Shown: positions 1-20,000, counted from the stretch's first letter. The stretch is 20,000 nt of DNA from Reclinomonas americana ATCC 50394 (GCA_048213135.1 PS015034.1:130320-150319), one strand, 5' to 3'. Made by a program: numbers and translations. Notes: a model not told the origin generated them from the letters alone.

Positions 1-2141
1 GTCGGTGAGGATGTGTGGAACATGTACAATGAGGCGTTTGACTGGCTGCCACTTGCGTGCACGTGCGTACCGCCTCGCCACTCTGTTGTTGCTGCTGTTG
101 CCAACTGATGTGCAACACACAGAATCGAGCAAAAGATTTTGTGCATCCACGGCGGCATTGGCGGCTCGATTCATCATCTGGGCCAACTGCAAAACATCAA
201 GAAACCAATAGAGGTGCCAGAGGACATTGAGTGCGAACAAGATCGGATCATCATCGATGCGCTGTGGAGCGACCCGACGGAACACGATCGCGTGCATGGT
301 GTACATCCGAACCTGCGTGGTGACAACATTGTGGCCTACGGCCCCGACCGCGTCAAGCAATTCTGTCGCGACAACGGGTTGGACCTCATCTTGCGTGCGC
401 ACGAATGTGTGGATGGCGGATACGAGTTCTTTGCCGACGGTCACTTGATCACCATTTTCTCGGCTACCAATTACTGCGGCAGGTGTGTGAGGCGTGCGGG
501 TGGCAAGTCGGTGGCATGTTGCTCATCTAATGCCCTTTTTCGCAGATACGAAAACAACGGTGCGATTGCCGAGATCACACTGGAGGGACGTGGTCAGGCC
601 ATCAAGGTCCGACAGAAGGTAATCAGCGCCAAGTCCGCCGAGGAGGCGGCCAGAAGGTGGAATGCAACGCAGTTCAGGCCGCCAACGCCACCGCGTGGGC
701 ACGGCAAGAGGAGTCCTCGCGACGAGGTTGACGACGAGGTCTACGAGAAGAGGGTGTGTATAGTTTGTGTGTGTGATCGACTGTCGTTTCTGCTGTCAAT
801 GCTCACAGTGCATCTTGTGGTCAGTTACCCAAGGTGTCTGCATTGTCGCTGGACGAGTCACCACCGTCGCCACCAAAGCGACAGGGAAGCACCGCTCCGT
901 TGCGGAATCGCTTCTCCAATCAGGGTGGTGCGAATGGCGCGGGTGGCAGCGGAGCGCTCGTGGGCGGCAGTGGTGTGGCGCAGAGGTACTGCACTGTCCC
1001 CCGCGCATGTTGTTGATTGTGTCGCCGTTGCTCATGTGACGCCCACCCCCACAGTTCACCTGGGATGATGCACCAGAGCGAGCGCATGACGACCATGCTG
1101 TCGCGTGGCGGAGGTGTCGGACCGTCGTCTCCTGCCCCTGTACCCAATGTCAAGTACGCCGGCGAGTATTTCCCGCCCGAGGTGGAGCAGTTCTTGCGAG
1201 TATCCGAGGTGTCGGCCGAGCGCATTGGCCATGTTGCGTGCATGGTAGACAGAGGGAGGGGGAGGAAGGGAGAGAGAGAAGAAGGGAGGAGGGAGGGAGG
1301 GAAAGAGAGAGAGAGATAAGAAAGAGGTATGAGTATGTGTAAGAGAGAGGCAGCGTGCGGGGGGCAGTGGGGTTGTGTGTCGGTGCCCCATCGCTCACGC
1401 ATTCTCCACAGGCGCGAGAGCTGTACGACGTCGCGCTGCGGGACGAGCCGGTTGCTGTGCGGGAACAGGGTCTCAATGAGGCACAGTTCACCAATCTGTT
1501 GGTGGAGTTGGGCGCCAATCGTCACTACTGCCGTCAGGTTTGTCGGATGGCATCGTTCGGAGGGAGAGATGTTTTGTCGCTCATATGAACTGTGTTGGTG
1601 CTCCAGTACTTCAAGGCGTTTGGTGGCATAACAACAGGTCGCGTCAATTTCGCGCAAATGGTGGCTGGCCTGGTGGTGCGTGCTGTGCATTCCTCTCTGA
1701 AGCCAGGCGTGGGGGAGTTCGTTTCNNNNNNNNNNNNNNNNNNNNTCACCTTGGTGTTGTGTTTGTGAACAGGCCATGGATCCCAACACGCCACACGCGG
1801 TGGACGACATCACGGGTGAGACGCGTCTGCGATACATCTTTGCCGTGTACGACCTGAATGAGGACGGCACGCTGGAGCACGACGAGTTGATCCACATGAT
1901 ACGACACATTCGACGAGGGCGCAACGAGGAGACGAGCACGCAGACGGTGGAGAACGACGTCGCCGAGTACATTGCCAGTCTGCGAAAGCAGACCGGTACT
2001 GCCAAGTCCTCGTTTACGATGCAAGAGTTTTGCGACGCTGTCAAGGCACTAACTTCCGTGGCACGTCCACTCTCTTCCGACTGCCACGAGCGCCGTTTTG
2101 ACGCACGCGCCGTGAGTGGTCGGGAGCTTGTATTTGAGTAA
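1..2141 (+). CDS. PPP-family Ser/Thr protein phosphatase, PPKL/BSU1-like catalytic domain (5' part outside window), followed by a low-complexity linker and a C-terminal EF-hand module
   Basis: Inferred exons: 1-62, 123-482, 546-753, 825-985, 1055-1232 (or 1208), 1412-1537, 1607-1675, 1773-2101/2141; all GT-AG and phase-compatible. Spliced protein has FDWLPLACTIEQKILCIHGGIG, ALWSDP, RG..YGPDRV, LILRAHE, FSATNYCG and a RPPTPPRG tail like BSU1/PPKL, then RLRYIFAVYDLNEDGTLEHDEL (canonical EF-hand loop). The exact 3' end is uncertain. Confidence 0.9.
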
Positions 2142-2198
2142 TCTCTCCTTTGTGTTGCCTCGTCGAGTGCATCTGTTCGCTCATCTCTCGTATATACA

Positions 2199-2222
2199 TG
2201 TGTGTGTGTGTGTGTGTGTGTG
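2199..2222 (+). repeat. (TG)n microsatellite
   Basis: Uninterrupted TG dinucleotide run between the convergent 3' ends of genes 1 and 2. Confidence 0.9.
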
Positions 2223-2344
2223 TTATGTTTTGCAACGAAAAAGAATGAAGTTCGGATTGTGGTGGTACAATGTGCACGGACGACAGACAGAAGGAGGAGG
2301 CAAGAGCAGGGGGAGAGACGGGCGAGGGAGCGAAAGAGGATTGA

Positions 2345-3653
2345 TTATTCGGCAGCGGCCTCTCCATCGGCAGCGGGTGCNNNNNNNNNNNNNNNNNNNN
2401 NNNNNNNNNNNNNNNNNNNNNNNNNNNNNNNNNNNNNNNNNNNNNNNNNNNNNNNNNNNNNNNNNNNNNNNNNNNNNNNNNNNNTTCCGCCTCCGCTGCT
2501 GGTGCTGATTCCTCCTCTGCTGCTGCTGGTGCTGCAGCAGCCTCCTCCGCTGGTGGCTCGGGCTCTGCAGCCGGCGCAGCCTCAGGCTCTGGAGCTGCCG
2601 CTGCTGCCTCCTCTGCAGGCGGCTGTTCGGCGGCCGGAGCCTCCTCGGCAGGCGCCTCTGCTGCTGGTGGCGCCGGAGCCTCACTGGCGGCCGGAGCCGG
2701 CTCATCGACAGCAACCGGCGCCTCTGCACCGGAGCCAGAGCCGCCCTCGTGCTCCTCTTCGTCAGCAGCAGCAGATGCAGCAGCTGCCGGTGGCGCGGGT
2801 GTACTCACAGGGTGCGACACTGGTGCAGCCGCCACATGCGCCTCACCTTGCCCCTCGCCTCGCCACGGTTGCGAATACGGCTCACCCTGCATGCACCACG
2901 GCCGCCAATGAGCAACGCCGGGGGATCACACACACTCTGCACAGAGAGATGCATCGCACCTTCTCCACGGCTTTCCGCGCCGCCACAAAGTTCTCAAACA
3001 GCTGCTGCAGCACCGGCGTGATGATGCCGTCGACTTGATCCACCAGGCGACCGCCCTGTGTCGGTTGCGAGTGAGAGAGGGATAGAGGAGAGGAGGAGGA
3101 AGAGAGACAAGTGGCACTCACCCAGTAGAAGAGAAAGAGGGGCTTGGAGTGCCCTATCCGCTCCGTCAGCATCGTGACCAACTCACGCTCCACCGGCCTC
3201 AACCCGCCCTCCACCTTGGACGCCGTCTCCACCGCCGTCTCACAGGCGATCTGTGCATGTTGAGCAACGAGACAGCTCACAGAGAGACACAGAGAGATAG
3301 ACACACCTTCAGCATACGAAAGTTGATCGATTGGCAGTCGGACTTGGTGTACCAGGCACGGAACGACGGCGCAATCACCTTGCTCGACCCTTTCATGCAT
3401 GAATGAACGAAAATCAGCATTCATCTCACTCTCACTCTCACGCATATGCTTGCACACTGACCTGCCCACTGCGTGTACACCTCCAACAGAGTCACTGCAT
3501 TGCCATCGTCGGCATCGGCACGCAGGCGGTCGCACAGAGGCAGCAAAGAGTCGCACTCAACATGCACCTGTGTGAGAGACGGATTGTGAGAGAAGGACAC
3601 AGAGAGAGAAAGAGACGGAGACAACGCACCTCGACATCCTTCTTTGGTGGCAT
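2345..3653 (-). CDS. Thioredoxin-fold protein (NME8/TXNDC3 or dynein light chain LC3/LC5-type Trx domain) lacking the CxxC cysteines, with an Ala/Glu/Pro-rich tail
   Basis: ATG at 3653 (MPPKKDVE) and 5 GT-AG introns. Spliced: TLLEVYTQWAGSSKVIAPSF...SKPLFLFYWGGRLVDQVDGIITPVLQQLF, matching the Trx pattern including the cis-Pro P-x-F-x-F segment. The tail runs through the gap at 2381-2484 and ends APAADGEAAAE-TAA at 2345. Confidence 0.7.
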
Positions 3654-3787
3654 CTTCTTGTTTGAGGGAGGAGGAAGCACGCAGTCAACAAGCAGAACGA
3701 ACTGTCCCTTGGTGTCGTAAACGCGCGCGAGCGGAATGGCGGGAATGCATTGTACCTACATATTTTGTCGCGTTTTTGCCACGCACG
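3654..3787. promoter_or_regulatory. Very short bidirectional promoter/5'UTR region with an E2F-like site
   Basis: Only 134 nt separate the divergent ATGs at 3653 (-) and 3788 (+). It contains TGGCGGGAAT at 3737-3746. Confidence 0.5.
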
Positions 3788-5882
3788 ATGTCTCTCTCAC
3801 CATCGCTCCTCGACAAGCGTCGCATCACGGTTCGTCTCCTCTCTCTGTTCTTTGCAGCGTCTCACTTTGCCTGTCTGCATTCTTGTGTGTTGTGCGTGTG
3901 TTTTTCCTAATGTCACGAGCGACTCTCTCACGCGCGCGCACTCACCGCCCACGCACGCACGCACGCACCACAGGTCATCTACCGCCAGCAGGCGCAGACT
4001 GTCAGCTGGTACCCCGATGCCAGCCCCGCTGGTATGCACTGCGCTTTGCCGATTCTATAAGTGTGTCGCGCGGTAAGATGGTGCCATGTCGACTCACCAC
4101 GAGCCCTCTCTCTTGCGTTTTGCGTTTGCGTGCAGAGATTGAGCGCCTGGTTCGTCAGGTGTTTGACATCCCCGCGCACCACTCGATCCTCCTGCGCGAT
4201 CTCGATGGAGACGCGGTCGTGGTGTCGCCCAACGTTTCGTGCCCATCGCATTCTTCCGTGCGCGCGTGTGTGTGTGTGCGACGCATCATGCTTGTTCTTC
4301 TCACAGCTGCCGAGCAACCGCACCTTCTCGCTCACCGTGGACGATACCTATCTGCGCCCGTCGTCGCCTTGTTGCGTCTGCGTCTGCATTGGTGTCTCAG
4401 GGGTGTCGCTGACGTGTGCATGCATTGCAGATCGCTCGACCACGCTGAGCGCCAGCTACTCGTCGCCATCGCGCACGTCGCCGTTCCGCTCGTCGTCGCC
4501 GGTCCTGTCCCGCTCGGCCGCCTCGCCGTTCCGCTCCTCGTCGCCGCTGCGCTGTTGCGTCTTTCGTTTTTCTCTACTGCTTCTTNNNNNNNNNNNNNNN
4601 NNNNNNNNNNNNNNNNNNNNNNNNNNNNNNNNNNNNNNNNNNNNNNNNNNNNNNNNNNNNNNNNNNNNNNNNNNNNNNNNNNNNNNNNNNNNNNNNNNNN
4701 NNNNNNNNNNNNNNNNNNNNNNNNNNNNNNNNNNNNNNNNNNNNNNNNNNNNNNNNNNNNNNNNNNNNNNNNNNNNNNNNNNNNNNNNNNNNNNNNNNNN
4801 NNNNNNNNNNNNNNNNNNNNNNNNNNNNNNNNNNNNNNNNNNNNNNNNNNNNNNNNNNNNNNNNNNNNNNNNNNNNNNNNNNNNNNNNNNNNNNNNNNNN
4901 NNNNNNNNNNNNNNNNNNNNNNNNNNNNNNNNNNNNNNNNNNNNNNNNNNNNNNNNNNNNNNNNNNNNNNNNNNNNNNNNNNNNNNNNNNNNNNNNNNNN
5001 NNNNNNNNNNNNNNNNNNNNNNNNNNNNNNNNNNNNNNNNNNNNNNNNNNNNNNNNNNNNNNNNNNNNNNNNNNNNNNNNNNNNNNNNNNNNNNNNNNNN
5101 NNNNNNGTATCTCTCTCTATCCGTGTCGCCGACAGTGCACCACAGCGGCCTCGCCGCGACTGTCTCCGCACCTGACAAGTTTTGTGTGTGTGTTTGCCTC
5201 TTATAACTCCCCTCTCCACCGCGTGGTGGTGCTGACCGACCCTTTTTCCGCACAGCGAGCCCGCGTTTTGCTGGCGGTGCCTCGTCGTCGTCGTCGGTTT
5301 TCGCCTCGTCGGGCCGTTCGCTGTCGCCGTCGCGCGCGGCGTCGTCGGCGCTGGCCAAGGAGTCGCTGGACCGCATCGACAAGCTGCGCAACTTTGAGAA
5401 GCACGTGCGTGAGCTGCAGGACAACAAGTTCCGCGAGTATTTCACCCTGTCGCCGGTGACGGGCGATTACATCTGGGCCAAGGATGTGACCTCGGGCGAG
5501 TTCATGAGCGCCATCTCCACCGATCTGTACTGGAATGCNNNNNNNNNNNNNNNNNNNNGGGAGCGTGCGGCCTGCTGTCGACTCGTCGGCGGGATGAGGT
5601 CGATCGCATCCTCAACGGTGCGCTGTCGGCGTACATGGATGCGGTCCGCGAGCTCGGACGTCGTGGCAACTTTGATTTGGTGGTGTCGATGGAGGCCGGC
5701 TTTGCACGCGAGGCGCTGCGGGCTGCCTACACCGAGACCATCAACGTCATCCAGCAGATCATCCACGAGAAGATCAAGGAGGCCGAGATCTACACTCGGT
5801 GAGTTTAGCGGACGCGCGCCGTGCCGGAGAGGGTGGAGTGGAACTGACGAGGGGCTTCTGCGTGCGCAGTGACGCATACTAA
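3788..5882 (+). CDS. Hypothetical protein: ubiquitin/PB1-like N-terminal domain, Ser/Pro/Arg-rich linker, predicted helical C-terminal domain
   Basis: ATG at 3788. Spliced N-terminus MSLSPSLLDKRRITVIYRQQAQTVSWYPDASPAEIERLVRQVFDIPAHHSILLRDLDGDAVVVSPNLPSNRTFSLTV has a beta-grasp-like pattern. SP-rich repeats occur on both sides of the 4586-5105 gap. C-terminal exons encode SLDRIDKLRNFEKHVRELQDNKFREYF...IIHEKIKEAEIYTR; a final intron at 5799-5869 gives ...YTRDAY-TAA (5882). Continuity across the gaps is assumed. Confidence 0.65.
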
Positions 5883-6216
5883 GGAACGACGATGGATTGC
5901 ACACTGCAGCGTGGGTACAGGGGGAGAGAGGAGAGTGATGAGAGCATTCCAGTGTACTTCTTTTGAGTAACGTCGATCAGCTGGGCACCTGTCCATGAAC
6001 ACAAGACATTAGGAGAGGAGGAACAGCGTGGCCGTTCTTTTGGTTCCAAGTGGGGGGTTTGGCGTTCAGAAAACGCCGTGGGAGAAAAAGAGAGAGAAGA
6101 GGACAGGAGATGCAAGGCAGGCCATAATGAGATAAGAGCCATGCCTGCCTCCCGCCCACTCCACAGCAGAAGTGGACCCGCGCGACACATTGGCACACGC
6201 CGGCCCACAACCACCA

Positions 6217-6254
6217 CCACCAAGTTACCGCCGGGAGCGGCGGCAACCTGGTGG
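6217..6254 (-). other. 17-bp stem / 4-nt loop hairpin in the H2A 3'UTR
   Basis: mRNA sense: CCACCAGGUUGCCGCCG-CUCC-CGGCGGUAACUUGGUGG, with 15 Watson-Crick and 2 G-U pairs. Confidence 0.7.
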
Positions 6255-6286
6255 ATTTGTTGCAGCAGAGGTGCAGGTGGAGGAGC

Positions 6287-6807
6287 TTACTGCTCGCCCT
6301 CGCCCTTGCCCTTCTTCTTGGGCAGCAGCGAGCCGTGGATGTGCGGAATGACACCACCCTGGGCAATGGTGACGTTCTTCAGCAGCTTGTTGAGCTCCTC
6401 GTCGTTGCGGACGGCCAGCTGGATGTGGCGCGGCACAATGCGCGACTTCTTGTTGTCGCGAGCGGCGTTGCCGGCGAGCTCGAGAATCTCAGCCGCCAGG
6501 TACTCCAGCACGGCGGCCAGGTACACGGGGGCGCCAGCGCCAATGCGCTCGGCGTAGTTGCCCGACTTGAGGAAACGAGCCAGACGACCCACAGGGAACT
6601 GCAGGCCGGCACGAGCAGAGCGCGAGATGGCCTGGAGAGAGAGAGAGAGAAGTGTTGTCAGCAACACTGTGCGCACACAAGACAACCACCACCATCGCCA
6701 CCATCGCCACACACACAAACCTTCGACTTGCTCTTGTTGCCGCCAATGATCTTGGCACCCTCCTCCACCACAGCCTTCATGGTCTTGGTCGCACGCACAG
6801 ACGCCAT
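6287..6807 (-). CDS. H2A: Histone H2A (143 aa, two exons)
   Basis: Exon 1 is 6807-6721, intron 6720-6632 (GTTTGT...GCTGAC...CCAG), exon 2 is 6631-6287 (TAA). Clear H2A core: [78 protein letters not shown]. Confidence 0.98.
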
Positions 6808-7414
6808 TTTGTTGATTGAGTTTTTCTTTGCTCACAAGCAGGTACTTGAAGAAGAATATGGGAAACACCGGGTTTCACATGCCGTCGAGCGGGAGTGCGA
6901 CGCCGCCGAAGACCACCCTCTTGGGTCGTTCGAAATGATCTCCATTGGCGGGAATCGCCGGCCGACCGATCGGAGTGGTGGGCTGCGCGGCGATGACCCG
7001 GGCTGTGGATGGCGCGACGATTAACGAGAATCATGATCATGCACTTGCGTCTGTGCGTGGGCCTTGGCGCTCCTTTCACAAATGGCAGTTGTGCCATCAG
7101 CAGTTGGTCCGCGTGCCTGCGCGGGAAAAAACCGGCCAATTCGCACGTTTTCTCCTCCGACGGCGCACTGCGATGCGCTGCTCTCCACCGGCACATGTGG
7201 TGAAGGTGGAGGTGGTGACGGGTGGTGACAGTGGCCGCCACGATGCGCACGCCATGCCCACACCGGAGCTAAAGATTCCAAGTCGACATCGACCGGCGAA
7301 TATGCGGCAAATTCGCACATTTTGCTGATTGCTTGCGTGGAGCGTGCGTAGTGCAATCGTGACTTGGCCTCTCGTCTTTTTGCCCCATACACACACCCGA
7401 CACGCACAAGAGAC
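6808..7414. promoter_or_regulatory. Bidirectional H2A/akirin promoter with E2F-like sites and CCAAT boxes
   Basis: ATTGG (6944-6948) overlaps TTGGCGGGAA (6945-6954). GCGCGGGAAA (7119-7128) lies next to CCAAT (7136-7140). Confidence 0.5.
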
Positions 7415-8374
7415 ATGTTGAAAGTGCAAAAGCGCCACTTCTCCATGATGGAGACGGAGGAGGCAAGCGCATCCCCGTTTGGCACCAGTGGCACCAGTGC
7501 CGCCGCCGCCGCCGCAGCCGCCGCCTCTGCCTCCTCTGCCTCCTCGTCCTCTCTCCACATTGGTGGCATGAGCGGCGGGTTGAGAAAGCAACACAATCCA
7601 CTGATGGGTGGCCTCTCGCGGCCGTTCGATGCCGATCCGCGGCCACTCAAGCGCCCCCACCTCGACTCAGCCTCGTCTTCCTCATCCTCTTCCTCCTCCT
7701 CATCGTCATCATCATCGTCAACAGCGCCAACAGCAACAACGGCAGCAGCAACGGCCGCCAAGAAGCTTCGTCGCCGCGGTGGCCGCCGATCGACCGACGC
7801 CACCATGGACAACGACGATGAGGACTACGGGGAGGAGGAGGACGAGGAGCTGGAGGAGGAGGAGGACGCAAGCAGCGGATTCCATCAACATCATCATCAC
7901 CGCCATCACAATCATCACCATGTGTCGACACAGCCGAGCATTCGTTTCGCGCTCTCACACGTGCTCTTGTGTGTGTGTCTCTCTCTGTTGCTCACGCGCG
8001 CGTGTGTGTGTGCACAGAGTGCAAGAACTGTGGTGCGTCGGTTGTACTTGATCCGGCGAGTCCCGCCGCGTCATTGCACTCGTCAGTGTCGTCATTATCA
8101 GTGGTCTCGGCTGCCGCACGTGCGTCCTCCCTCTCCTTGTCACACACACACACACGTGCGCGCTATGTGTTTTGCTGACTTGTTGTGCAGACTCGGTGGG
8201 AGGCGGATCGTCGTCGTCTGGTCGTGAGTTGCGCTACACGGAGGAGGAGCATGAGCGGCTGAAGCGAGCGGCTGTGGAGCGCGCTGTCATGGAGCGGGAG
8301 CAGGCGTTGCGCGAGGAGTTCCAGCGTGCGTCGCAGGAGCAGTTCTTTGCATTCCAGCGATTCCATGAGGTTTT

Positions 8375-8413
<39 letters not shown>

Positions 8414-8598
8414 CACACGAGTGCAATCGCCGTTCGTGTTTTGTACTCACTCTATCTCTCTCTTCTCGTAGGACTTTGTGGCGCAGCAGTTCCGCCGTCG
8501 GTGAGTTGTGGGCACGCGTTGTTGTGCATTTTGCTGCAGTGTGCCAACTCACGCCTCTCGTTTCTGCATTCCGCAGCGAGTGCTCTTACATTACGTAA
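7415..8598 (+). CDS. akirin: Akirin-like nuclear protein
   Basis: Inferred exons: 7415-7943, 8018-8119, 8191-8369, 8472-8500, 8577-8598. The C-terminus ERAVMEREQALREEFQRASQEQFFAFQRFHEDFVAQQFRRRECSYIT* parallels the akirin C-terminus (ERE..LREEY...EQY..FVKF..D.I......SYVS). It also has an N-terminal KR motif, an NLS-like PLKRPHL and a low-complexity middle region. Confidence 0.75.
8378..8411 (+). repeat. (CA)n microsatellite within akirin intron 3
   Basis: About 17 uninterrupted CA units. Confidence 0.9.
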
Positions 8599-9449
8599 GG
8601 CGCACTGATTAATATTCGTCACGCAGCGGCAGTCACTGCTGCTGCCGCCATCGTCGTCGTCGTTACCTCACAAGAATAAGTATTCTTTCACTCCCTCCCT
8701 TCTTGCATGTATGTGTGCGCGCACATTCATCGCTCTTCCNNNNNNNNNNNNNNNNNNNNNNNNNNNNNNNNNNNNNNNNNNNNNNNNNNNNNNNNNNNNN
8801 NNNNNNNNNNNNNNNNNNNNNNNNNNNNNNNNNNNNNNNNNNNNNNNNNNNNNNNNNNNNNNNNNNNNNNNNNNNNNNNNNNNNNNNNNNNNNNNNNNNN
8901 NNNNNNNNNNNNNNNNNNNNNNNNNNNNNNNNNNNNNNNNNNNNNNNNNNNNNNNNNNNNNNNNNNNNNNNNNNNNNNNNNNNNNNNNNNNNNNNNNNNN
9001 NNNNNNNNNNNNNNNNNNNNNNNNNNNNNNNNNNNNNNNNNNNNNNNNNNNNNNNNNNNNNNNNNNNNNNNNNNNNNNNNNNNNNNNNNNNNNNNNNNNN
9101 NNNNNNNNNNNNNNNNNNNNNNNNNNNNNNNNNNNNNNNNNNNNNNNNNNNNNNNNNNNNNNNNNNNNNNNNNNNNNNNNNNNNNNNNNNNNNNNNNNNN
9201 NNNNNNNNNNNNNNNNNNNNNNNNNNNNNNNNNNNNNNNNNNNNNNNNNNNNNNNNNNNNNNNNTCTCGCTTCCTGTGTGTTTAAAGAGAAACCCAGCTC
9301 CTTCCCCTCCCTCTTGCTCTCGGGCAGGACCGTTGTGTTGTGTAAATGACCTTCGCTGGTGTCGTTCAGATTGATAATGGTACACTTGGACATTTTTCAC
9401 AACAAAAAAAGACACAGCTCTCTCTCTCTCTCGCTGCGCTCCCAGTCTA

Positions 9450-12303
9450 TTACTTGCACATGCATTCGCTCGGCGTCGGTGTGACGACGGACGGCGGATT
9501 CTTCGGTCGTCGGCTGAGCAGCTTGGCCAGGTACCAGCGTCGGTCAAAGCTGTCGTACACCTGGCTGAAGTTGCCGAGGCTGACGAGCGGGGTATGGGTG
9601 GCGCGTGCGGTGCGCTCGGCGTCCCGCTTCACCACCGCGAGTGTGCGATCGACCACCGCCGCCACGGTCGGCAAATCGACCAGCGTAATGATTCCGTCGC
9701 CAAACTCTTCCGCGAGGTGCACAAACAGTGGCCACGTAGAAACTGTGCATGCATTCGGGGTGTCAACAGCAGGCNNNNNNNNNNNNNNNNNNNNGGTGCA
9801 TTCGACAGCATCACGCAATGCCAACCGTGTTGAAAGGCACACGTGAGGGCCTCGACAAAGAGTGGCCGCGTACTCCGCTCGCTCTCCAAACACTCCAGCA
9901 GGCACGTGAGCAGGGCAGTGAGGCAATTGGACTCAACGACTACGCGCTCCATGTCCGCATTCGACGACACTGTGCCGGTAGGGGTGCGACAGTGAGCGCA
10001 AGGTGTGCGTGTGTGTGCGGGAGTGCAAGCGTACGCAACTCGCTCGGCAAATGACATGAACATGTCGCAAACAATCAAAGGCAATGTGCATGTCGTCGGG
10101 CTCGCTGGCAATCGTCTGCAGCCGTCTCATCACATTCTGCACCAGGTGCGGGAACTTGGGCGCCAGTGCACTGCAAAACGAAAGTGGCTTGTCCACTGTC
10201 GAACACACACACACACATGTACTGCCAGTGAGACGACGATACGCACTCACTCGTGTCGTGAGATGGACGCAACGCAGGAGGCACATCAGATTGACACTCT
10301 GCGGGGCCAAGTCGTCGCACACTCGAATGCAGATGGTCTCGCTCAACAGCGGTGAACTCCACACCACCGAGTTGATGAGGTCCAGTGCAACGGCATTGAC
10401 CTGACCGTGCAGCTCGAGAACACTTCGAGTCACCGCACCTCGATATCCCGCTGCGCGTTTCATCTCCCCGTGGTGAGCGACACGCATGGTGCGCGGGAAA
10501 CAATTGAAGGGTTACGCACGAGGGACGAGAAGCATGCACAGAGCTGACTCCAGCAAACTGTGCTGGCAGGCCCAGCTGAGGAAGCGCTCCACCTGTCGAG
10601 CCTTGTACCGGGCGTTGCGTGTTGGCGACGATGGTCGATTGGACGGACAGTTGGTGCAGCAGAAGCTGTCGCACATGCCCGCAAGCTCCGGCGCCTGCAG
10701 CCACATTGACGAGAATTGTGGCCAGTCTGCAAGGGGAACGAGAGGAAGTGAGCGGTTTTCCATAGAATAATGCATCTGACGGGGACGACGCACGTGACGC
10801 GCTCAGCGTCTGCACATCATACAACCAATAAGAACGCGACATTAGGGTGAAAAAAGGTCACAAGAGCAGCACTCGGGTCACCTTGAGCACGTTGAACGCT
10901 TGCATCCGTGCAGATGAACTACTGGCCTCGATCACCGTGCTGATCATGGCGTCGATGAGCACCGCGGTGACTTCTGGTTTGCAAATGCGACTCTGCAGTA
11001 CGCCGTCGAGGCCGCTGTCGACTGTGCACAACCGCAAAAATGTGTGAGCAACGAGTGCGATGGCATGCGCAAAGCACTGCGTGTGCGCGCAACTTTCGGG
11101 CACCAAGTACACCAAGTCCACCATGTTTGTCAGCTCCGGCAACAATTCGTTTCCGTCGTCGACCTTCTGCAACACTCGCCACAGGATGAACTGGTGCATT
11201 TGTCGGCACTCGGCGTACACGGTACGTGCAACTAAAAAACATGGAGAGTTAGTTTTTCGTATGTGTGTGGCGCTCCCACAGGTGCACGCAACAAATTGGA
11301 CTGTCGACCGCCAGCGCAAACACGGCCGCCTCTCGCAGCTCCTCGTCGTCGGCAATCTTCGCAGCAACCAGTTCTACAGACGCTGCATCTTGCACGGTGC
11401 CCGCTGCGCCCGAGACGCGTGCGCATTCAGCAAGTAGCAGGTGCAAGCACGGCAGCGCAGATTCACTCACCAGTGACCATAACAAGGGCGCAGGCGTGTG
11501 CTCGAAGCGACTTTTCATTTCCGCGTGTCGCATAGCATTGCAGAATCGACAGCGGTATTGTGCGATCGGCCCAAAACATGTGGTGTACCGTGCAGCCAGC
11601 TGCATGTCGGGAGGTGAGCAACTGCAAATCAAACAGTCGCTCCGCCCGCCACCTCTGCACGCACCATCGTAGAGGGCCGACATGAGCGCCACGCGCAGTG
11701 ACGCAGGCCACACAGTGAGCTCGGGATCGTCGGTGGTGGGCGAGATCAGCACCTCGACAATGAATTCGACAAGGTCGGCAAGCGGATCCGGGTCGTCCTC
11801 GTCGGCGGCAAAGTGTTGTATGTAGTAGGCCAGCAACGTGAGGGCCAATGCACAGCGCACCACCGGCACTTCGCCCGGATCATACAACAATTCCTCCCAC
11901 TCGTCCACCGCGTCACTGCAGCATGGGAGTGAGTAGAGACGATGAATCACAAAAAAAAAAAACACACAAGTGAAAGAAGCCACTCAACGGTGACAATGAG
12001 CCGCTGAGATTCAGCGACTGGAGACGCGGCGGCAACCGGTCGGACTCCAGCGCCTCCAGGCTCGGGCAGTCCGTGACCGACAGCGTCTGCAGACCGGGCG
12101 GCAATCCGACCGGGAAGGTGGTGATCGGTTGCAGCGAGAGCACCAACGTGCTCAGCGCCGTCGGCAAGTTCTCAATTGTGCGCGCCAATGCCTCATCGCT
12201 GAGGTGGCACTGATGCAACTCGACGTAGCGCAGCGTCGGCGCCAGTCCACTGGGAATGCCGGCTCCCCCCAGCTCCACACGCCGTATTGTCAACCGCGTG
12301 AGA
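9450..12303 (-). CDS. Leucine-rich-repeat protein with a long predicted helical (ARM/HEAT-like) C-terminal region; 5' end lies at or beyond the gap
   Basis: LRR units LTRLTI, LAPTLRYVELHQC, LPTALSTLVLS, LPPGLQTLSVTDC, LPPRLQSLNLS (12303-11989). About 10 further phase-compatible GT-AG-joined exons of amphipathic helical sequence end ...SECMCK-TAA at 9450. Confidence 0.7.
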
Positions 12304-12355
12304 NNNNNNNNNNNNNNNNNNNNGGGAGAGAGAGAGAGAGGGACGAGCAACGTAC

Positions 12356-12424
12356 CGCGCCAGCAAAGAGCAGCTGAACGATGACGAGTGTGACGATGAC
12401 CAGCACCATGCGTGTTGAAGCCAT
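12356..12424 (-). CDS. First exon encoding a 23-aa hydrophobic segment (signal peptide or first TM helix); parent gene uncertain
   Basis: ATG at 12424 gives MASTRMVLVIVTLVIVQLLFAGA, followed by a GCG|GTACGT donor and an intron running into the 20-N gap. Confidence 0.5.
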
Positions 12425-13397
12425 GTTGCAAGACGGGTGTGTGAGTGCGAGCACACACACATACACACACTTGCAGAGTCTGCAGGAGTCGATGGGAGAG
12501 CGATCGCTCGGTGTCGAAAAGAGAGCTGGAAAGAAAGAGATTCGGGACGCTCGCCGGGAAGTTGGATCGTTTCTGCAGTCCACCACGCCCGCGGAGCCCA
12601 ACATAGACGTACAGTATGTCTGCTGTGCAGCAGTGCCGGCGTCGTAACTGCAAGCATGGATCGTGATCGTCCGCGGCCGGATTCTTCTTCGTGTACAGAC
12701 TTGCTCGCGTCCGCTGGCGTCGTGTCTTCGTTGTATGTGATAGTGTGGAGGGATCACAGCGGGAGGTTGCAGCAAGGGAGAGCGCTGCGCTCGCGCGCGA
12801 CGTCGAAGTCTTGATCAATGCATGCACAATCGCACTTTGACGTCGACATGCGTGCATCTGCTTCACGAAGTCAGCAGGCAGTCTAGGGCCCAACCTGCGC
12901 CTCCTTCCATGCGTGTGCACAACAACATGTGAACGACGAACAAGAAACTGCGCAACAGCATGCGCAAGTCATGACCATGGCCATTTCCGATCAGTTTTTC
13001 ACAGTTTCTTCTCGCTCACTCACACCACAACACGTCCCTCATCACAGCACACACGCGCGCACACACGCAAACGAAGAGAGTGTGGCGAAAAGAGCAAAAA
13101 AAGTCCTGTTTGTCTAACTCTTCTTGAATCCTTCTTTGTTCGTGTGTGCACACGCACGCGCGCTGTGTGTGCGTGCGAGAGCGAGAGAGAGAGAGAGTAC
13201 GTTCACGCGTGTGTGTGTGAGGTGCAAGAATACGNNNNNNNNNNNNNNNNNNNNNNNNNNNNNNNNNNNNNNNNNNNNNNNNNNNNNNNNNNNNNNNNNN
13301 NNNNNNNNNNNNNNNNNNNNNNNNNNNNNNNNNNNNNNNNNNNNNNNNNNNNNNNNNNNNNNNNNNNNNNNNNNNNNNNNNNNNNNNNNNNNNNNNN

Positions 13398-14389
13398 AGT
13401 CACCGTTGACATTTCGACTGCATCTCCTCCTCTCCTAGTCCTGCCGCTCCCATGTCCATTCACCGCTTCCTCGCCGTCACTATCACCATCACCGTCAATC
13501 TCTTGCAGCAGCACGGCTCCTCCGTCTTTCGACGACGTGTCGCTGGAGGGCGGCGACACCTGCGCGACCCTGGTGGCCACCGAAGTCACAAACAGTCCAC
13601 ACAAGATGAGCACGCCGCCAACAATCTGCAGCATGCCGATTGTGGTGCCCAGCACCAACACAGAGAATGCGGCCACGGCTAGTGGCTGCAGCGGCATGAA
13701 AGCAGCGACAGTGGTGGCCGGCACTTGCTTCGCGGCCCACATGTTGGCCCCAAACGTCACCACCGTGCCAAACACAATCACATACGCCAGCGACAGCAAC
13801 GCTGTGCGGTCAAAGCCTGTGGTCCAAAAGGCGGCACCGTCGGTGGCGGCCGGGTAGATCGAGGCCAGCAGCGTGAAGAAGAAGCAACCGACAAACAGCA
13901 ATCCCGTCACCAGCAAGGGCGAACCCGTCATTGGTAGTAGCTTGGCGCGCTGATAAGTGACAAGGGTGTGAGTGGGAGTGAGTGTGTGATAGGGAGAGCA
14001 CAGAGATCGACCGCAACTTGCAGAATGAACAGAACGGAGATGCACGAGCACTGGAGACAGAGAAGAATGTTGGAGAGCAGGGGGTGGCTCGCGTCGGCCG
14101 TCGCCGACGCACTGGAGGAGAACACTACGACAAGGACGGCGCCAGTGACCGAGAGCACCACACCCGCCAGTTTGGTCCACGACAGACGCTCCACACGAAC
14201 GACCAGCGAGAACAGATAGGTGAAGACGGGAATCGTCGGCTGCCACAGTGCCGCGTTGAACGCCGTGCCCACCGACACAGCGATGGTGAAGCCCACGTTG
14301 TTAGCAAAGAGAAGGAAGCCACCGACAGCGTACAGTGCGAGCCATCGCAGGCGAGAGACTCGGATCGTCGATGCGGTTGATGATGATGA
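13398..14389 (-). CDS. EamA/DMT (drug/metabolite transporter) family protein, WAT1/UMAMIT-like; both ends in gaps
   Basis: Multiple TM helices with typical motifs: GTAFNAALWQPTIPVFTYLFSLVVRVERLSWTKLAGVVLSVTGA, LAYVIVFGTVVTF, WAAKQVPATTVAAFMPLQPL, QIVGGVLILCGL. One intron at 14017-13950. Confidence 0.9.
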
Positions 14390-14809
14390 NNNNNNNNNNN
14401 NNNNNNNNNNNNNNNNNNNNNNNNNNNNNNNNNNNNNNNNNNNNNNNNNNNNNNNNNNNNNNNNNNNNNNNNNNNNNNNNNNNNNNNNNNNNNNNNNNNN
14501 NNNNNNNNNNNNNNNNNNNNNNNNNNNNNNNNNNNNNNNNNNNNNNNNNNNNNNNNNNNNNNNNNNNNNNNNNNNNNNNNNNNNNNNNNNNNNNNNNNNN
14601 NNNNNNNNNNNNNNNNNNNNNNNNNNNNNNNNNNNNNNNNNNNNNNNNNNNNNNNNNNNNNNNNNNNNNNNNNNNNNNNNNNNNNNNNNNNNNNNNNNNN
14701 NNNNNNNNNNNNNNNNNNNNNNNNNNNNNNNNNGGCAGCAAGGAGGGTGTGCCATGAGATGTATAAACGCGAAAATCTAATTGTTGTTTTATTATGGTGG
14801 AGGCTGTGA

Positions 14810-17800
14810 TTAGGCCCAAACCATCGTGTCGGTGACAAAGTGAATAACATTCGTAAAGTAGCTGAAGGCGAAGAATCGCTCAATGAGCGGGAACACGATG
14901 AGCAGCTTCAGCGGTTCGTTGATGAAAATGTCCTCGGCCAGGCTGTGCAGGAAGGAGACACGCACGCGGTTAGTGACAACAACACACACACAAACGATGT
15001 TCGCCACCACGAGTTGAGACGCAACGCGACAAAGGTCGATCCGAATACGACCTGATCGCTGGTGGTCTCTCGCAGCTGACCAATCGTCAGGATGGTCATG
15101 TATGACAAGAACGCACCAACGCCCCACGACAGGGCGTACATCCAGTACACGGTGGTATATGGCAGCGAATACTGCTCGAGCCAGCGCTTGAAGCGATTCC
15201 ACAGACCTATACAAGCGCACGTGCGGTGAGTTGGACCACGCACGAGACACACAAAGCAGTCGTTATGAAAACGACGTACCTCGCTCTCCGCGCGGGGCGT
15301 ATCCACTGTCGAGTGCCACCTTTGGGTCGGTGACAAATTTCTCGTTCATGTACACGTGACGCTTGGTGCGCAAGTACGTTGCGGGGGCGTCGTAGACCAC
15401 CAGCTGATGGCAGTCGCGGAAGCAGTTGTGCGAGAGCGACAGTGCGTACAACGGCTGTCGCACGCGGGAGAGATGAGTGGCACGCAGAACACGACGCAGT
15501 CATAAAGAGTGCACACCGGTGGAGCCTTGGCTGTGCGCGTGTCATCCTCGGCCTCGCGCGCCTCATCATCCTCGCCACCGGCCAAGTCCACCATGGTCTC
15601 CAGGCGGCTAAAGGTGTCGGACGGAGGCTTCTCGGTACACAGTTTCACACCAGACGAGGCGCCTTCGATGAACAGGCCAACCAACGACAGCACCATCACC
15701 GGTCGCTCTGTGGACGGCAGCGATGCACTCTTGTCGTCGGGTGTGTCGATCTGTGCCCTCCGACAACATGTGATCAGTGAAAAGAGTGTGCGCGCGGAGG
15801 CGATGTTCGGCGTGTCGTACCTCGCGGTGCGCCAGCGTCACGTGGACGCCAGGGGGGGTGGGAATCACCAGCTCCTCAACGTCTTTGGTGGTGGCCTGTC
15901 CGCCAAACATGCGAATGTTAGTGCGCTACGCATATCGAAACTCGTACACAGGCCACACCGCCTTTGCCATACTCACCAAGCCCTGCTCCACTTCGCGCTG
16001 CACGGCGCGCAAGTTGCGATCTCCACCACTCATGAATTTCAGCGGGCACACAATCTGCACCGATCACGTCGTCAGACAGCTATTTGCTCAGTCAACGATG
16101 CAATTGCTACGCAACAGCCTCGTGGCGCTTCTCGGAGCGCACTGTCAGCCGGCCAGTGTAGGTGCGAATGTTTGGAGGAATCTGCAGCGGCCGGTAAAAT
16201 CCTGGGCGCAGCACAATGGTCGACGGCAGCAACCCGTGCGGAGCAGATGCCATTAGTTCCTGCACACCGGTAGCGTGAAGATGTCAGAAACAGAATGAAG
16301 CAACGCATATGGCAGAGAAGAAGCATCGCACCGCAAATGTTGGCTCCTTGTTGCTGTCGTCCGCCTCCTGCTTGGCGACGTTGTGTTCGTTGTCGTCCTC
16401 GTCTGGCGCCAGATCCGGTCGTACATACGCCACGTGCGAGCTGTCCAACACACCGCCGACCACTGGCGCGACCTTGTTGGCGCGCTGCTTGCTCATGACG
16501 GCTGTGCAGCGTGGATTTGCAAATCAGTACGGGCGAGGACACTGACAATAATGAAGAGAGCGTGCGTACCGACGGCGCCCTCAGAAGCTCGACGGGTCGA
16601 CACGGCGACTGCGAGATGGGAAGCGGGGGTGTCAGAAGACGTCTGACAACGCAAAACCATGTTTGTGAGGAGAATCGCTGTGTACCAATGGCTGCCTGTT
16701 CATACGACTCGTCCAAGTCCTCGGCCTGACCGCCGTCAGAGAAGACGTCCACATCGACGCCAGCCTCGTCCTCGACTACGGCTCCGTCGTGCACCACGAA
16801 ACCAGGCAACGCCGCACCCGGCGCCTGTGCACAGCAACGATCGCCAAGGTGAGTGTCACAAATACTTGGAGGTGAAGAAAACTTGCAGCGCACCTCTGGT
16901 GAGCCGACCATGAAGATTTCCTACATGACACAGAGGTCAGTGTCACAAACACGAACTCAGAATGGCGTAGCACGCAAGCGAGCGAGCGTACCCTCGCTGT
17001 CAGTGCCACACTGCGGCGGCGGGCTCCACCCTCAACCACGATGCACGGCGGCGGCGGCATTTCGTCAGCAAGCAAGTCGCCACTTCCATCTGCACATTGC
17101 AGACACGTTGTAAGTATTCTCCTCCTCACCAGACAATGCGAGAGAAACCGACGAAACTCTGACCGGCACCACGCTGCGCAAATAGATGAAGCAGTGCAAT
17201 ATCAAGGTGTCAGCTGTGCGTGCAGTGGAGAAACACACATAGCACACACAGAGTCGAACCTCAAACGGTGGCGGCAGCGGATTGGGTGAGTGCATCGAAG
17301 CAGATCTGGCCACTGCGTGCACAAGAGACAATGGTTGAGAAACCAATGCCGTGCAGACAGCACTACTTGCTTCCAATGCATCGCAACTGATTGCACCGAG
17401 TCGCTGTCATGCAGACGGCAACATGGAATTCAATCGTAAGCAACAGGATGATCACAACTACAAGAGCAGTGATGACGACGCAACGTTAGCGGGAACTGCA
17501 AAAGGCTCGTCTGTGTCACGAAAAGAGAGAGCACTTCCGAGTTAGCATGACGACAAAGTGCAGGATAAAAGCGACACCGCGTACCACCAGAAGCGGGTGG
17601 CAGAGCAGCCACGTTTTCTACGGTGAAAAAGACAATAACGTGTGAGGAAGCCATGATCAAACAGGCAAGGCTGCTCGCTCTTGTTGCACTCACGGGAAGC
17701 GTTGATTCCGACCACTGCGCCTGTGGTCCAAGCACCCTGTCGCAGATAAATGTACGTCAGGACACGAGGATCCGACAATGGAAATCTTCACACTGAGCGC

Positions 17801-20000
17801 GGTGGAAAGACCTTGTTGGCGGACGCACTGGCTTGGAGTGGCTTGTACTCGGCTGCGTGTGGCACACTTGATGTTCAGTGCATCATGTGCGTCGCGATGC
17901 GCACTCACGACCGCCGTACTCACCGGGGGCAATCGACTCGGTCAGCTTCGCATACAGCATCTTGATGCGTTGTGCTTCACCGTGCTCCAGCCACGTGTCA
18001 CGCAGTGGAACGCGAGGCGTGAGACGGAATGGGATGCTGATGAGGAAGGCCGCAGGAATGATCATCAAGCCTGGCAAAAAGAGGGTTGGTGATGCGCATG
18101 CCACATGTGCAAGGCTTGCGGCAAATAAAAAACACTCAACCAACGACGAGGCCAATCCACAAGTCTTGCACAATCGACGTGGCCACGCTCACTTGCATCT
18201 GATTGACAAGCACGGCGTGCATGTACAGCACACCAATCGTGGCCAACCAAAGCACCTGCAAAGTGAAGAATGAGAAACCATTGACACAAAGTCTTCACCA
18301 TGTGACACGCAACAGTGAGTCGCTGTGTGCGACGGTAGCGTTCCCAAGGTCCGGCAGTCACCACCGACACCCACGTGTGCTGCGTGGCCAGTCGCTGCGC
18401 CATGCGAGTGCCCATTTTGAAGACACTCTGTCGTCGCCGATTCAACTCAATGACCTTGGAGACAACAGCTGCAAGCGATCGCAGTGAGTGAGAATGAGAA
18501 GGGCCTGTGCGATTCGAGAGGAATACACGTGTCGGGCAAACCTTTGAACTTGGCCAGCGCCTCGACGTGCCGTCGCAGCTTCTCCTCCAGCACACTGCCT
18601 TCTGTGGCCAGCTCACTCGCTGCCTCAGTGGCCTCATCCTCAGTCATGGTGGGGCACGAACTGATGGTGGAGGCCATGAGGCCGCGGTTCGGACGCAGCG
18701 CCGATTCGGTGAGTGCCTGTCCGGGTGAGCGCAAAAAGTTGCCTTGCCGTTCGGCAGGCACCGAGAGTGACGATGGAAGCTCCAGTCGCGGTTGCTGTGA
18801 GGAGCGGTGAGCTGATGCGGCCACCTTCTTTATGGCAGTCTGTGTGCTCTCACTTACCGAGAATGGCAGATTGGCAGCGAGAAGCTGTGATCCGGCGCGG
18901 TCAAACTGCACGCCCAAACGCACACATTATCACTAGGAAGACTACTGACAGCACGTGAAACTCGAAATGCACGCAACGGATGCCGACAGAATTCTGCCGA
19001 GTACCAACTTGGGTGGTGGCTGCACGTGTTTCTCCTTCAGTCAACAAGAGGACAGACAGACAGACAGACAGCAAGCAAGCTGGGTTGACGCACCTCGGCA
19101 ACCTCAGTCGACACCATGCTGCTCGACTCGGACGACAGACTGTCCGAATGGGCCGTGCCAAGCGAGTCGGTCGGGGTGGAGCATCCGGCCGAGAACGACT
19201 GCGATCGCTGCCGGCGCGGGCCGCGGCGAGGCGGAGTCATTCTCGACGCCGAATCGGCGTTTGACGACTGCTGCGTGAACGACTGACGTGGCGCGTAAGC
19301 ACACTAGGTGTGACAGAGTAGTGTGTGCAAGAACTGGTGATCTCACCGGTGATGCAAATGGTCTGTCGCCATCAAGTATGGTGGGAACCACCGTATTCGA
19401 TCGCGTGTGTGGCAGATCAGGCGACACTCGCGACAGCGCACGACTGAGTGACAATCGAGCGGCTCGGTCAGTCACCAGCGAAAGAAACGATGAAATAGGG
19501 GGACGCATCGCGATGCACTCACCCCAACGCTCGCGGAAGCGCAGCAGTGGGCAAGTCGGCAGAGACGTTGCGACGGTGACGAGATCGGTCGCGATCGGGA
19601 GACAAGGCGTGCCCGCGGTGCTTGGGTGCCATGCGCGAGGAGGCGCGCGGACGCACAGGAACCGATGCATATTGCGGCTGCTGCTGCTGCTGTTGCTGTT
19701 GCTGCGCTTGTGGGTCGACAACCGCTTGGTCTGGCCTGGAGGCTATCGCCAATGTAGAGCCCTTGGCCAGGAATTGCGAGGCATCCCTGCGCGTGCGGGG
19801 CGTGAGACACAACGCCGCCTCTCCTATGTAAGAGTGGGCGAACGAGCGACGAACCTGGCAAGGAAGCCCTCTGGCAGCAGCTGAACCGCCGGTGCATTGC
19901 ACGCCGTACGTCGTGCCAACACCTCCTTCACCAGGTCCGCAAAACGGAAAATACCGCGGAACATCGGCAATTCGACCTCAGTCTGCACGTACGTGTCAAA
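14810..20000 (-). CDS. Large polycystin-1 (PKD1/REJ family)-like membrane protein, 5' part outside window, ending without the 6-TM channel domain
   Basis: About 28 phase-compatible GT-AG introns link an open frame from 20000 to TAA at 14810. It contains HTWVSVV....ERYRRTQRLTVLW (cf. PKD1-family HxWxS....FTRVQRxxC), then DLWIGLVVGLMIIPAAFLISIPFR, a long hydrophilic loop, and a TM pair ending STFVALAEDIFINEPLKLL (cf. PKD1-family ...FI.QP.K). Poly-Q occurs near 19677-19705. Some internal junctions have alternatives. Confidence 0.65.

Follow-up and report, generated by a model that had tools for sequence, protein, structure and literature searches.

We analysed a 20-kilobase (kb) stretch of the Reclinomonas americana ATCC 50394 draft assembly (GCA_048213135.1, PS015034.1:130320-150319; called the window below, positions 1 to 20,000) and found that about one-third of its introns start with an unusual 5' splice site (donor), which carries one T more than the local consensus after the initial GT. 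These extra-T sites are most likely real 5' splice sites of ordinary major-type GT-AG introns. We infer their use in RNA from reading frames, motif recurrence and homology. The reading we prefer, to which we give a probability of about 0.6, is that most of them are true donors recognised in a frame shifted by one base.

Gene models were made by reading all frames and then setting each intron by numeric coordinates, which gave 63 introns across eight gene regions. All of the introns were GT-AG, every spliced frame was without stops and zero frameshifts were met in approximately 3,500 codons. This continuity of frame in all genes means that a donor is needed in exactly the phases assigned. We called a donor ordinary when position +5 of the intron was G. 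Extra-T donors combine T at +3 and G at +6 with a base other than G at +5. Position -1 is the base with which the exon ends.

By these definitions 40 donors were ordinary (GTNNG, mostly then T), 20 were extra-T and three belonged to neither class, giving a sharp bimodality between G at +5 and G at +6. Not a single donor had G at both positions. T at +3 was found in 21 of the 23 donors without G at +5, compared with 6 of the 40 with it (p = 2e-9). All 20 extra-T donors shared the T at +3 and the G at +6, and T followed at +7 in 16 of them; of the 20, 11 were exactly GTTGCGT and 16 matched GTTG(C/A)G. A preliminary description of this DNA had drawn attention to such a class and to a possible bimodality of this type, which is borne out within the window. 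It had estimated the share at about a quarter of introns; the abundance was right but the figure was too low, as extra-T donors make up 20/63 (32%).

The two classes also differed on the exon side of the junction. The exon ended in G at only 1/20 extra-T donors versus 37/43 other donors (p = 5e-10; 34/40 for ordinary donors alone), and the depletion was also seen when the 12 strongest extra-T sites (identified below) were considered alone (p = 1e-6). The association with non-G at -1 proposed previously therefore holds within the window: it is seen in 14 of the 15 sites quoted at that time, the exception being the donor at 18140. The composition of the -1 position in extra-T donors (A6 C7 T6 G1) resembled that of the -2 position in ordinary donors (A17 C12 T7 G4).

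The most common form, GTTGCGT, was present in 12 copies in the whole window against 4.88 expected, a number reached in 1 of 200 shuffles. On genic sense strands there were 11 copies against 2.98 expected (first-order Markov, P = 2.7e-4), while antisense strands had one against 1.36 expected (the copy at 10614 on the plus strand, antisense to gene F). All 11 sense copies coincided with frame-checked donors of our models, in agreement with the earlier statement that every sense-strand GTTGCGT falls at a donor. Independent position frequencies predict 0.25 GTTGCGT donors, against the 11 observed. The shorter hexamer GTTG(C/A)G was not enriched (41 versus 33 expected) and was also found in exons; two of the four sense copies of GTTGAGT were not donors, and GTTTCGT too occurs in exons. 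The letters alone are thus insufficient for a donor.

In their length and 3' signals the extra-T introns were like the others. Median intron length was 72 nucleotides (nt) for extra-T and 71 nt for ordinary introns, and the 19 extra-T introns whose acceptor could be placed were all GT-AG. The acceptor was CAG in 18/19 extra-T and 35/39 ordinary introns. A branch-like CTNAY, scored as a motif match only, was present in 13/19 extra-T introns and 33/39 ordinary introns, at a median distance from the 3' end of 19 and 22 nt, respectively. These similarities imply the same machinery for both classes and exclude a minor-type class. Minor-type introns have a long conserved donor and, near their 3' end, a conserved branch box; neither was found when all donor 9-mers and the final 50 nt of the introns were inspected, and a U12-type origin was rejected. 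An all-against-all comparison of 61 introns in search of introner or transposon families gave 99 matches, all of 19 nt or less (88 pure and 11 compound dinucleotide repeats). The introns share only dinucleotide repeats and are therefore not copies of a mobile element. Microsatellites of the (GT)n/(CA)n and (GA)n/(CT)n types are frequent within the introns.

To each extra-T site we applied a survey of alternative donors, covering all in-phase GTs whose use leaves the frame uninterrupted; 56 nt was the shortest intron otherwise seen. The 20 sites are given below with the intron coordinates, strand, donor heptamer, preceding exon base and intron length (models A and B are two versions of a microexon region described further on).

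1233-1411, plus strand: GTTGCGT after T, 179 nt, phase 0, in the second of two tandem phosphatase genes; in-phase alternatives all non-consensus.
4234-4306, plus strand: GTTTCGT after C, 73 nt; with 4258, the sole ordinary in-phase alternative, the intron would measure 49 nt and the extension would look non-coding (-3.9 bits).
4371-4430, plus strand: GTTGCGT after T, 60 nt; zero in-phase alternative GTs.
4554-4560, plus strand: GTTGCGT after T; the open frame stops here and the acceptor is inside the assembly gap 4586-5106.
5179-5255, plus strand: GTTTTGT after A, 77 nt; ambiguous, with an ordinary in-phase alternative GTGTGTT at 5188 (68 nt) and an upstream exon bordered by a gap.
7944-8017, plus strand: GTTTCGC after C, 74 nt; no alternative inside 160 nt.
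9970-10039, minus strand: GTTGCGT after A, 70 nt; doubtful, with an in-phase upstream GTTTGCG at 10072 (103 nt).
10196-10273, minus strand: GTTGCGT after C, 78 nt; ambiguous, with an in-phase GTGCGTA at 10246 that gives 51 nt, below every other intron; the segment between is non-coding-like (-5.9 bits).
11022-11093, minus strand: GTTGCGC after A, 72 nt, in frame; the sole alternative gives a 204-nt intron; an addition to the sites described previously.
11232-11292, minus strand: GTTGCGT after T, 61 nt; the sole alternative is a non-consensus GTCCAAT at 11301.
11916-11988, minus strand: GTTGAGT after C, 73 nt; ambiguous, with alternatives at 11967 (GTGTGTT, 52 nt), 11994 and 12036, the upstream leucine-rich repeat pattern speaking against 12036.
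13950-14017, minus strand: GTTGCGG after A, 68 nt; in the EamA/DMT transporter gene (gene G).
14943-15025, minus strand: GTTGCGT after C, 83 nt; ambiguous, with in-phase alternatives GTTTGTG at 14995 (53 nt) and GTGTGTG at 14989 (47 nt).
16055-16115, minus strand: GTTGCGT after T, 61 nt; two codons further on there is an in-frame stop, and the alternative GTGCGCT at 16142 would remove a coding-like segment (+4.2 bits).
17090-17157, minus strand: GTTTCGT after A, 68 nt; follows a 16-nt microexon, in model A only; also an addition to the earlier list.
17313-17387, minus strand: GTTGCGA after A, 75 nt; follows a 16-nt microexon, in model A only.
17404-17484, minus strand: GTTGCGT after C, 81 nt in model A and extending to 17313 in model B; the donor is common to both.
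18071-18140, minus strand: GTTGAGT after G (the sole such case), 70 nt; the sole alternative would remove 31 coding-like codons (+12.3 bits).
18256-18313, minus strand: GTTGCGT after T, 58 nt; alternatives all non-consensus.
18906-18977, minus strand: GTTGCGT after C, 72 nt; the sole alternative is a non-consensus GTACTCG at 19004.

The letters and strands of the 15 sites quoted in the preliminary description were all correct, as were its account of the donors at 4234, 7944 and 5179 (G at +6, non-G at -1) and its placing of the acceptor for 4554 in a gap. Its caveat that some sites have in-phase alternatives was justified for those it named (1233, 10273, 11988 and 18313) but understated, as the same is true of 10039, 15025, 16115, 11292, 18977, 14017, 4234, 5179, 17387 and 17157; most of these alternatives are poor donors. 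The extra-T introns 4371-4430, 11022-11093 and 18906-18977 have lengths divisible by three. The first two are also free of stops in the upstream frame, so that their retention would keep the reading frame, while 18906-18977 has in-frame stops.

The three donors with G at neither +5 nor +6 were the following.

8370-8471, plus strand: GTTTTTC.
10810-10881, minus strand: GTGACCC.
16609-16685, minus strand: GTACACA.

The extra-T motif, /GTTNNGT, can be viewed as the local consensus G/GTNNGT (best form G/GTGCGT; the slash marks the cut) in which the second G has become T and the cut lies one base to the left. Under the shifted reading, the recognising RNA (U1 or an equivalent) would pair in its usual frame over the seven letters, with the first G of the intron in the slot of the exon-final G and the T at +3 in that of the T at +2. 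Cleavage would stay before the sole GU present, one base upstream of the cut usual for that pairing frame. The match to the core GCGT was stronger in extra-T than in ordinary donors (mean 3.45/4 versus 2.80/4, p = 0.002), which fits a single internal mismatch in need of compensation. It was likewise raised in ordinary donors lacking G at -1 (3.50/4; n = 6, p = 0.014). The exon preceding the three unclassed donors ended in G in all cases and in AG in two, suggesting that these sites rely on pairing with the exon side.

We considered whether the class could be served by a dedicated variant U1 small nuclear RNA (snRNA), present beside ordinary U1 and with a 5' end fully complementary to GUUGCGU, in which case neither a mismatch nor any general flexibility would be needed. 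Variant U1 genes are known in humans (PMC3561869 and PMC10870369), and the sharp bimodality and uniformity of the class (GTTGCGT in over half of the sites, GTTG(C/A)G in four-fifths) are what a second exact guide would be expected to leave. However, a perfect guide would make the stronger core needless, whereas compensation of a mismatch predicts it, and sites of the GTTT type (4234, 5179, 7944 and 17157) would mismatch such a guide anyway. The window itself contained no snRNA gene (0 Rfam matches at gathering score). On balance we regard a variant U1 of this kind as unlikely.

A different way to accommodate the surplus base is a canonical register from which one U (+2 or +3) is bulged, the arrangement of the human 'bulge +2/+3' sites. 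A register with the bulge at +3 (or +2) has been validated in humans (PMC4856993); moreover, a run of two U eases a one-U bulge, and G+1 and U+2 would remain paired. In that arrangement the -1 base would still be paired, though, and G should be found there at least as often as in ordinary donors (34/40), yet the sequence statistics gave 1/20. The base at +3 could also be any of the four, yet it was T in 20/20. Given that the -1 position is like the ordinary -2 position, that the surplus base is always T and that the GCGT core is stronger, we infer from these sequence patterns that a shifted register is favoured over a bulged one, and bulging seems very unlikely to explain the class.

Both of these alternatives accept the sites as donors. 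It could also be that many of the GTT sites are unused, that splicing really uses ordinary GTs close by and that GTTGCGT is an intron-proximal enhancer or decoy, or a by-product of codon usage or composition. Ordinary in-phase GTs do occur near 5179, 10039, 10273, 11988, 15025, 16115 and 17157, codon usage prefers 10072 to 10039, and GTTGAGT and GTTTCGT are also present inside exons. But for 12/20 sites (1233, 4234, 4371, 7944, 11093, 11292, 14017, 16115, 17484, 18140, 18313 and 18977) the in-phase survey found no ordinary alternative giving an intron of at least 56 nt unless coding-like sequence was deleted, and 4371 was without any alternative. Use of the alternatives would give introns of atypical length, 47-53 or 88-103 nt, in a set whose lengths centre on 71. 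The GT at +6, named previously as a donor that might be used instead, was ruled out by frame in 9/10 cases. In addition, the heptamer was at a frame boundary in each of its sense copies (11/11) and was unenriched on the antisense strands.

These results were complemented by a motif-blind parser, which required GT and AG and used codon usage and a loose acceptor score. It recovered eight extra-T introns exactly (1233, 4234, 4371, 10273, 11093, 14017, 15025 and 18140). Homologue spacing supported two sites. At 1233, 17 of 45 aligned homologues span the junction ungapped, and the extra-T donor was better than 1245 in 13 of them (4 ties, 0 worse) and better than 1209 in 16; as homologue identity near this junction is low, it is the spacing that is tested. 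For the transporter gene, a word search gave 1 homologous protein and a full HMMER search gave 267, all weak, of which 30 were used; the resulting profile scored 208.3 bits with the donor at 14017, versus 202.5 with 14011 and 192.4 with 14035. The ordinary junctions 1538/1606 and 1676/1772 were also borne out by homologue comparison. Taken together, it is highly improbable that unused sites account for the class.

Finally, we asked whether the extra T might be a mistake of sequencing or assembly, one base inserted after GT in donors that are truly GTGCGT or GTGAGT, and rejected this as scarcely credible: the draft is gapped (nine N runs, 1,737 N) and an intronic indel leaves frames intact, so that frames cannot rule it out, but the roughly 3,500 codons without a frameshift indicate that indel errors are rare, and such errors would not recur 20 times at one position of a splice signal or track the base before the intron (G in 1/20 versus 37/43).

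The region 17484-17090 could be modelled in two ways, both of which keep the frame. In model A there are two 16-nt microexons and four introns of 81, 75, 86 and 68 nt, three of them with extra-T donors. Model B has two introns, of 172 and 40 nt, and leaves the donor at 17387 unused. We favour model A because its intron lengths are typical. A third 16-nt microexon was found in gene F, so such exons do occur in the window. Each of the following microexons is flanked by complete donor, branch-like and acceptor signals.

10794-10809, minus strand: 16-nt microexon in gene F.
17388-17403, minus strand: 16-nt microexon in gene H.
17158-17173, minus strand: 16-nt microexon in gene H.

Several observations weigh against our reading of the extra-T sites as true donors in a shifted register. 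A plausible ordinary in-phase GT lies near five of them (5179, 10273, 11988, 15025 and 17157). At 10039 the splice signals speak for the extra-T donor and codon usage for 10072, the 33 nt upstream of 10039 looking non-coding (-8.9 bits); this site is doubtful. The sites at 17387 and 17157 depend on 16-nt microexons. The homology support is modest, with weak identity near 1233 and a margin of 5.8 bits at 14017. Non-G at -1 would also be expected of random, false sites, so only for real sites can the -1 statistic tell a shifted pairing from a bulged one. The choice of introns among alternative GTs was made with knowledge of the motif rather than blind, and all donor counts come from one 20-kb window, which bears on the share in the genome as a whole. 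U1 is reported as undetected in Amoebophrya A25 and A120 (PMC7789003), so an account based on U1 may not apply.

The window is eukaryotic, with 57% G+C outside N runs, dense genes and extremely dense introns. Its nine N runs measure 20-525 nt each, and several of them fall within introns or exons of the modelled genes. The eight gene regions were as follows.

1-2138, plus strand: gene region A, two tandem EF-hand/PPP phosphatase genes.
3653-2486, minus strand: gene B, small, 5 introns.
3788-5881, plus strand: gene C.
6807-6290, minus strand: histone H2A gene, one intron (6632-6720).
7415-8599, plus strand: gene E.
12424-9450, minus strand: gene F, with leucine-rich repeats.
14389-13398, minus strand: gene G, EamA/DMT transporter.
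20000-14809, minus strand: gene H, 28 introns.

Extra-T donors were present in gene regions A, C, E, F, G and H; none was found among the five introns of gene B or in the single intron of the histone gene. Gene H can be read in one frame for over 1,060 codons, across 28 introns of about 57-86 nt (approximately 9 introns per kb of coding sequence), and eight of these introns are extra-T. One exon of gene H searched by shared words gave zero homologue candidates, and ten exons from genes F, G and H gave no Pfam match at the curated cut-off. The histone H2A has a canonical-type core and an unusual lysine-rich N-terminal extension of about 29 residues.

Region 1-2138 proved to hold two tandem phosphatase genes, not one. 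The catalytic part (1 to about 650) aligned with the C-terminal end of 12/12 top homologues, and the part from the ATG at 1065 aligned with the N-terminal EF-hand region of homologues. An intron at 986-1054 (donor GTACTGC) was dropped from the models, since homologues show this region to be the spacer between the two genes. The spacer is about 48 nt long, from the stop at 1014-1016 to the start at 1065. It includes a branch-like motif as well as a CAG (1052-1054), possibly a trans-splice acceptor of a polycistronic array. The best protein match of the phosphatase exon had 61% identity, and the named matches were from dinoflagellates, Amoebophrya and other alveolates; the protein collection had no identical or close entry for this exon. 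For comparison, Amoebophrya ceratii AT5 has a GC content of 55.9%, but its reported median intron length of 184 nt and roughly 3.4 introns per gene are at odds with the window, where the median is 71 nt and there are about 9 introns per kb of coding sequence. In metagenomes the exon matched 80 loci (best identity 60%), in all of which it was unbroken and none of which was a close relative.

Our literature search, made in a limited library that did not cover supplements, found no lineage with such sites as a major class. An abundant form of a register known as rare in humans would be new, conditional on confirmation in RNA. Whether about one-third of introns genome-wide are one base out of register, which would make this the first organism with the shifted register as a major constitutive class, is a tentative proposition to which we give slightly less than even odds. 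Recognition of such a class could fall to a U1 variant, or to a U1-poor system of the kind suspected in Amoebophrya. How cleavage is chosen when U1 pairing and the GU disagree has so far been studied on a handful of human sites and minigenes. If the class held throughout the genome, thousands of natural shifted sites would provide a large data set on the positions that compensate a mismatch, of which the stronger core and the indifferent -1 position are already visible in the window. They could also reveal whether U1, U6 or U5 co-evolved with the shifted sites. In practical terms, a gene finder that has learned GTNNGT as its donor would overlook or misplace about one-third of the donors, and the microexons along with them.

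In humans, shifted sites are a tiny part of the noncanonical registers, numbering a few dozen. All noncanonical human registers together account for 1.5-5% of 201,541 sites (PMC4856993), and shifted U1 pairing is established in human cells (Roca and Krainer 2009, as described in Tan et al. 2016, PMC4856993). The extra-T donors are like these human sites in having GU followed by U at +3, the G/U displaced to +6/+7, a pairing predicted to be better when moved by one base, and a cut at the GU. They are unlike them in frequency, as the human sites are rare and here they make up 20/63 donors, and in having the core GCGT rather than the human core. The human 'bulge +2/+3' sites (Roca et al. 2012, via PMC4856993) share with them a surplus U after the GU and a remainder lying one base further in, but a bulge keeps the -1 pair, whereas here G is at -1 in 1/20. 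U12-type introns offer another example of a second donor class, distinct in sequence, beside the main one; unlike them, 0/20 extra-T introns had a minor-type donor or branch box, and their 3' ends were the same as those of other introns. A lineage-wide loosening of 5' splice-site recognition is also seen in Symbiodiniaceae, which have GC and GA donors, and in Amoebophrya A25 and A120, which have non-canonical introns (PMC7789003); the phosphatase of the window is nearest to dinoflagellate and Amoebophrya proteins (up to 61%). Unlike in those organisms, all introns here are GT-AG and without an introner family, and it is the internal consensus that is offset rather than the terminal dinucleotides that are changed.

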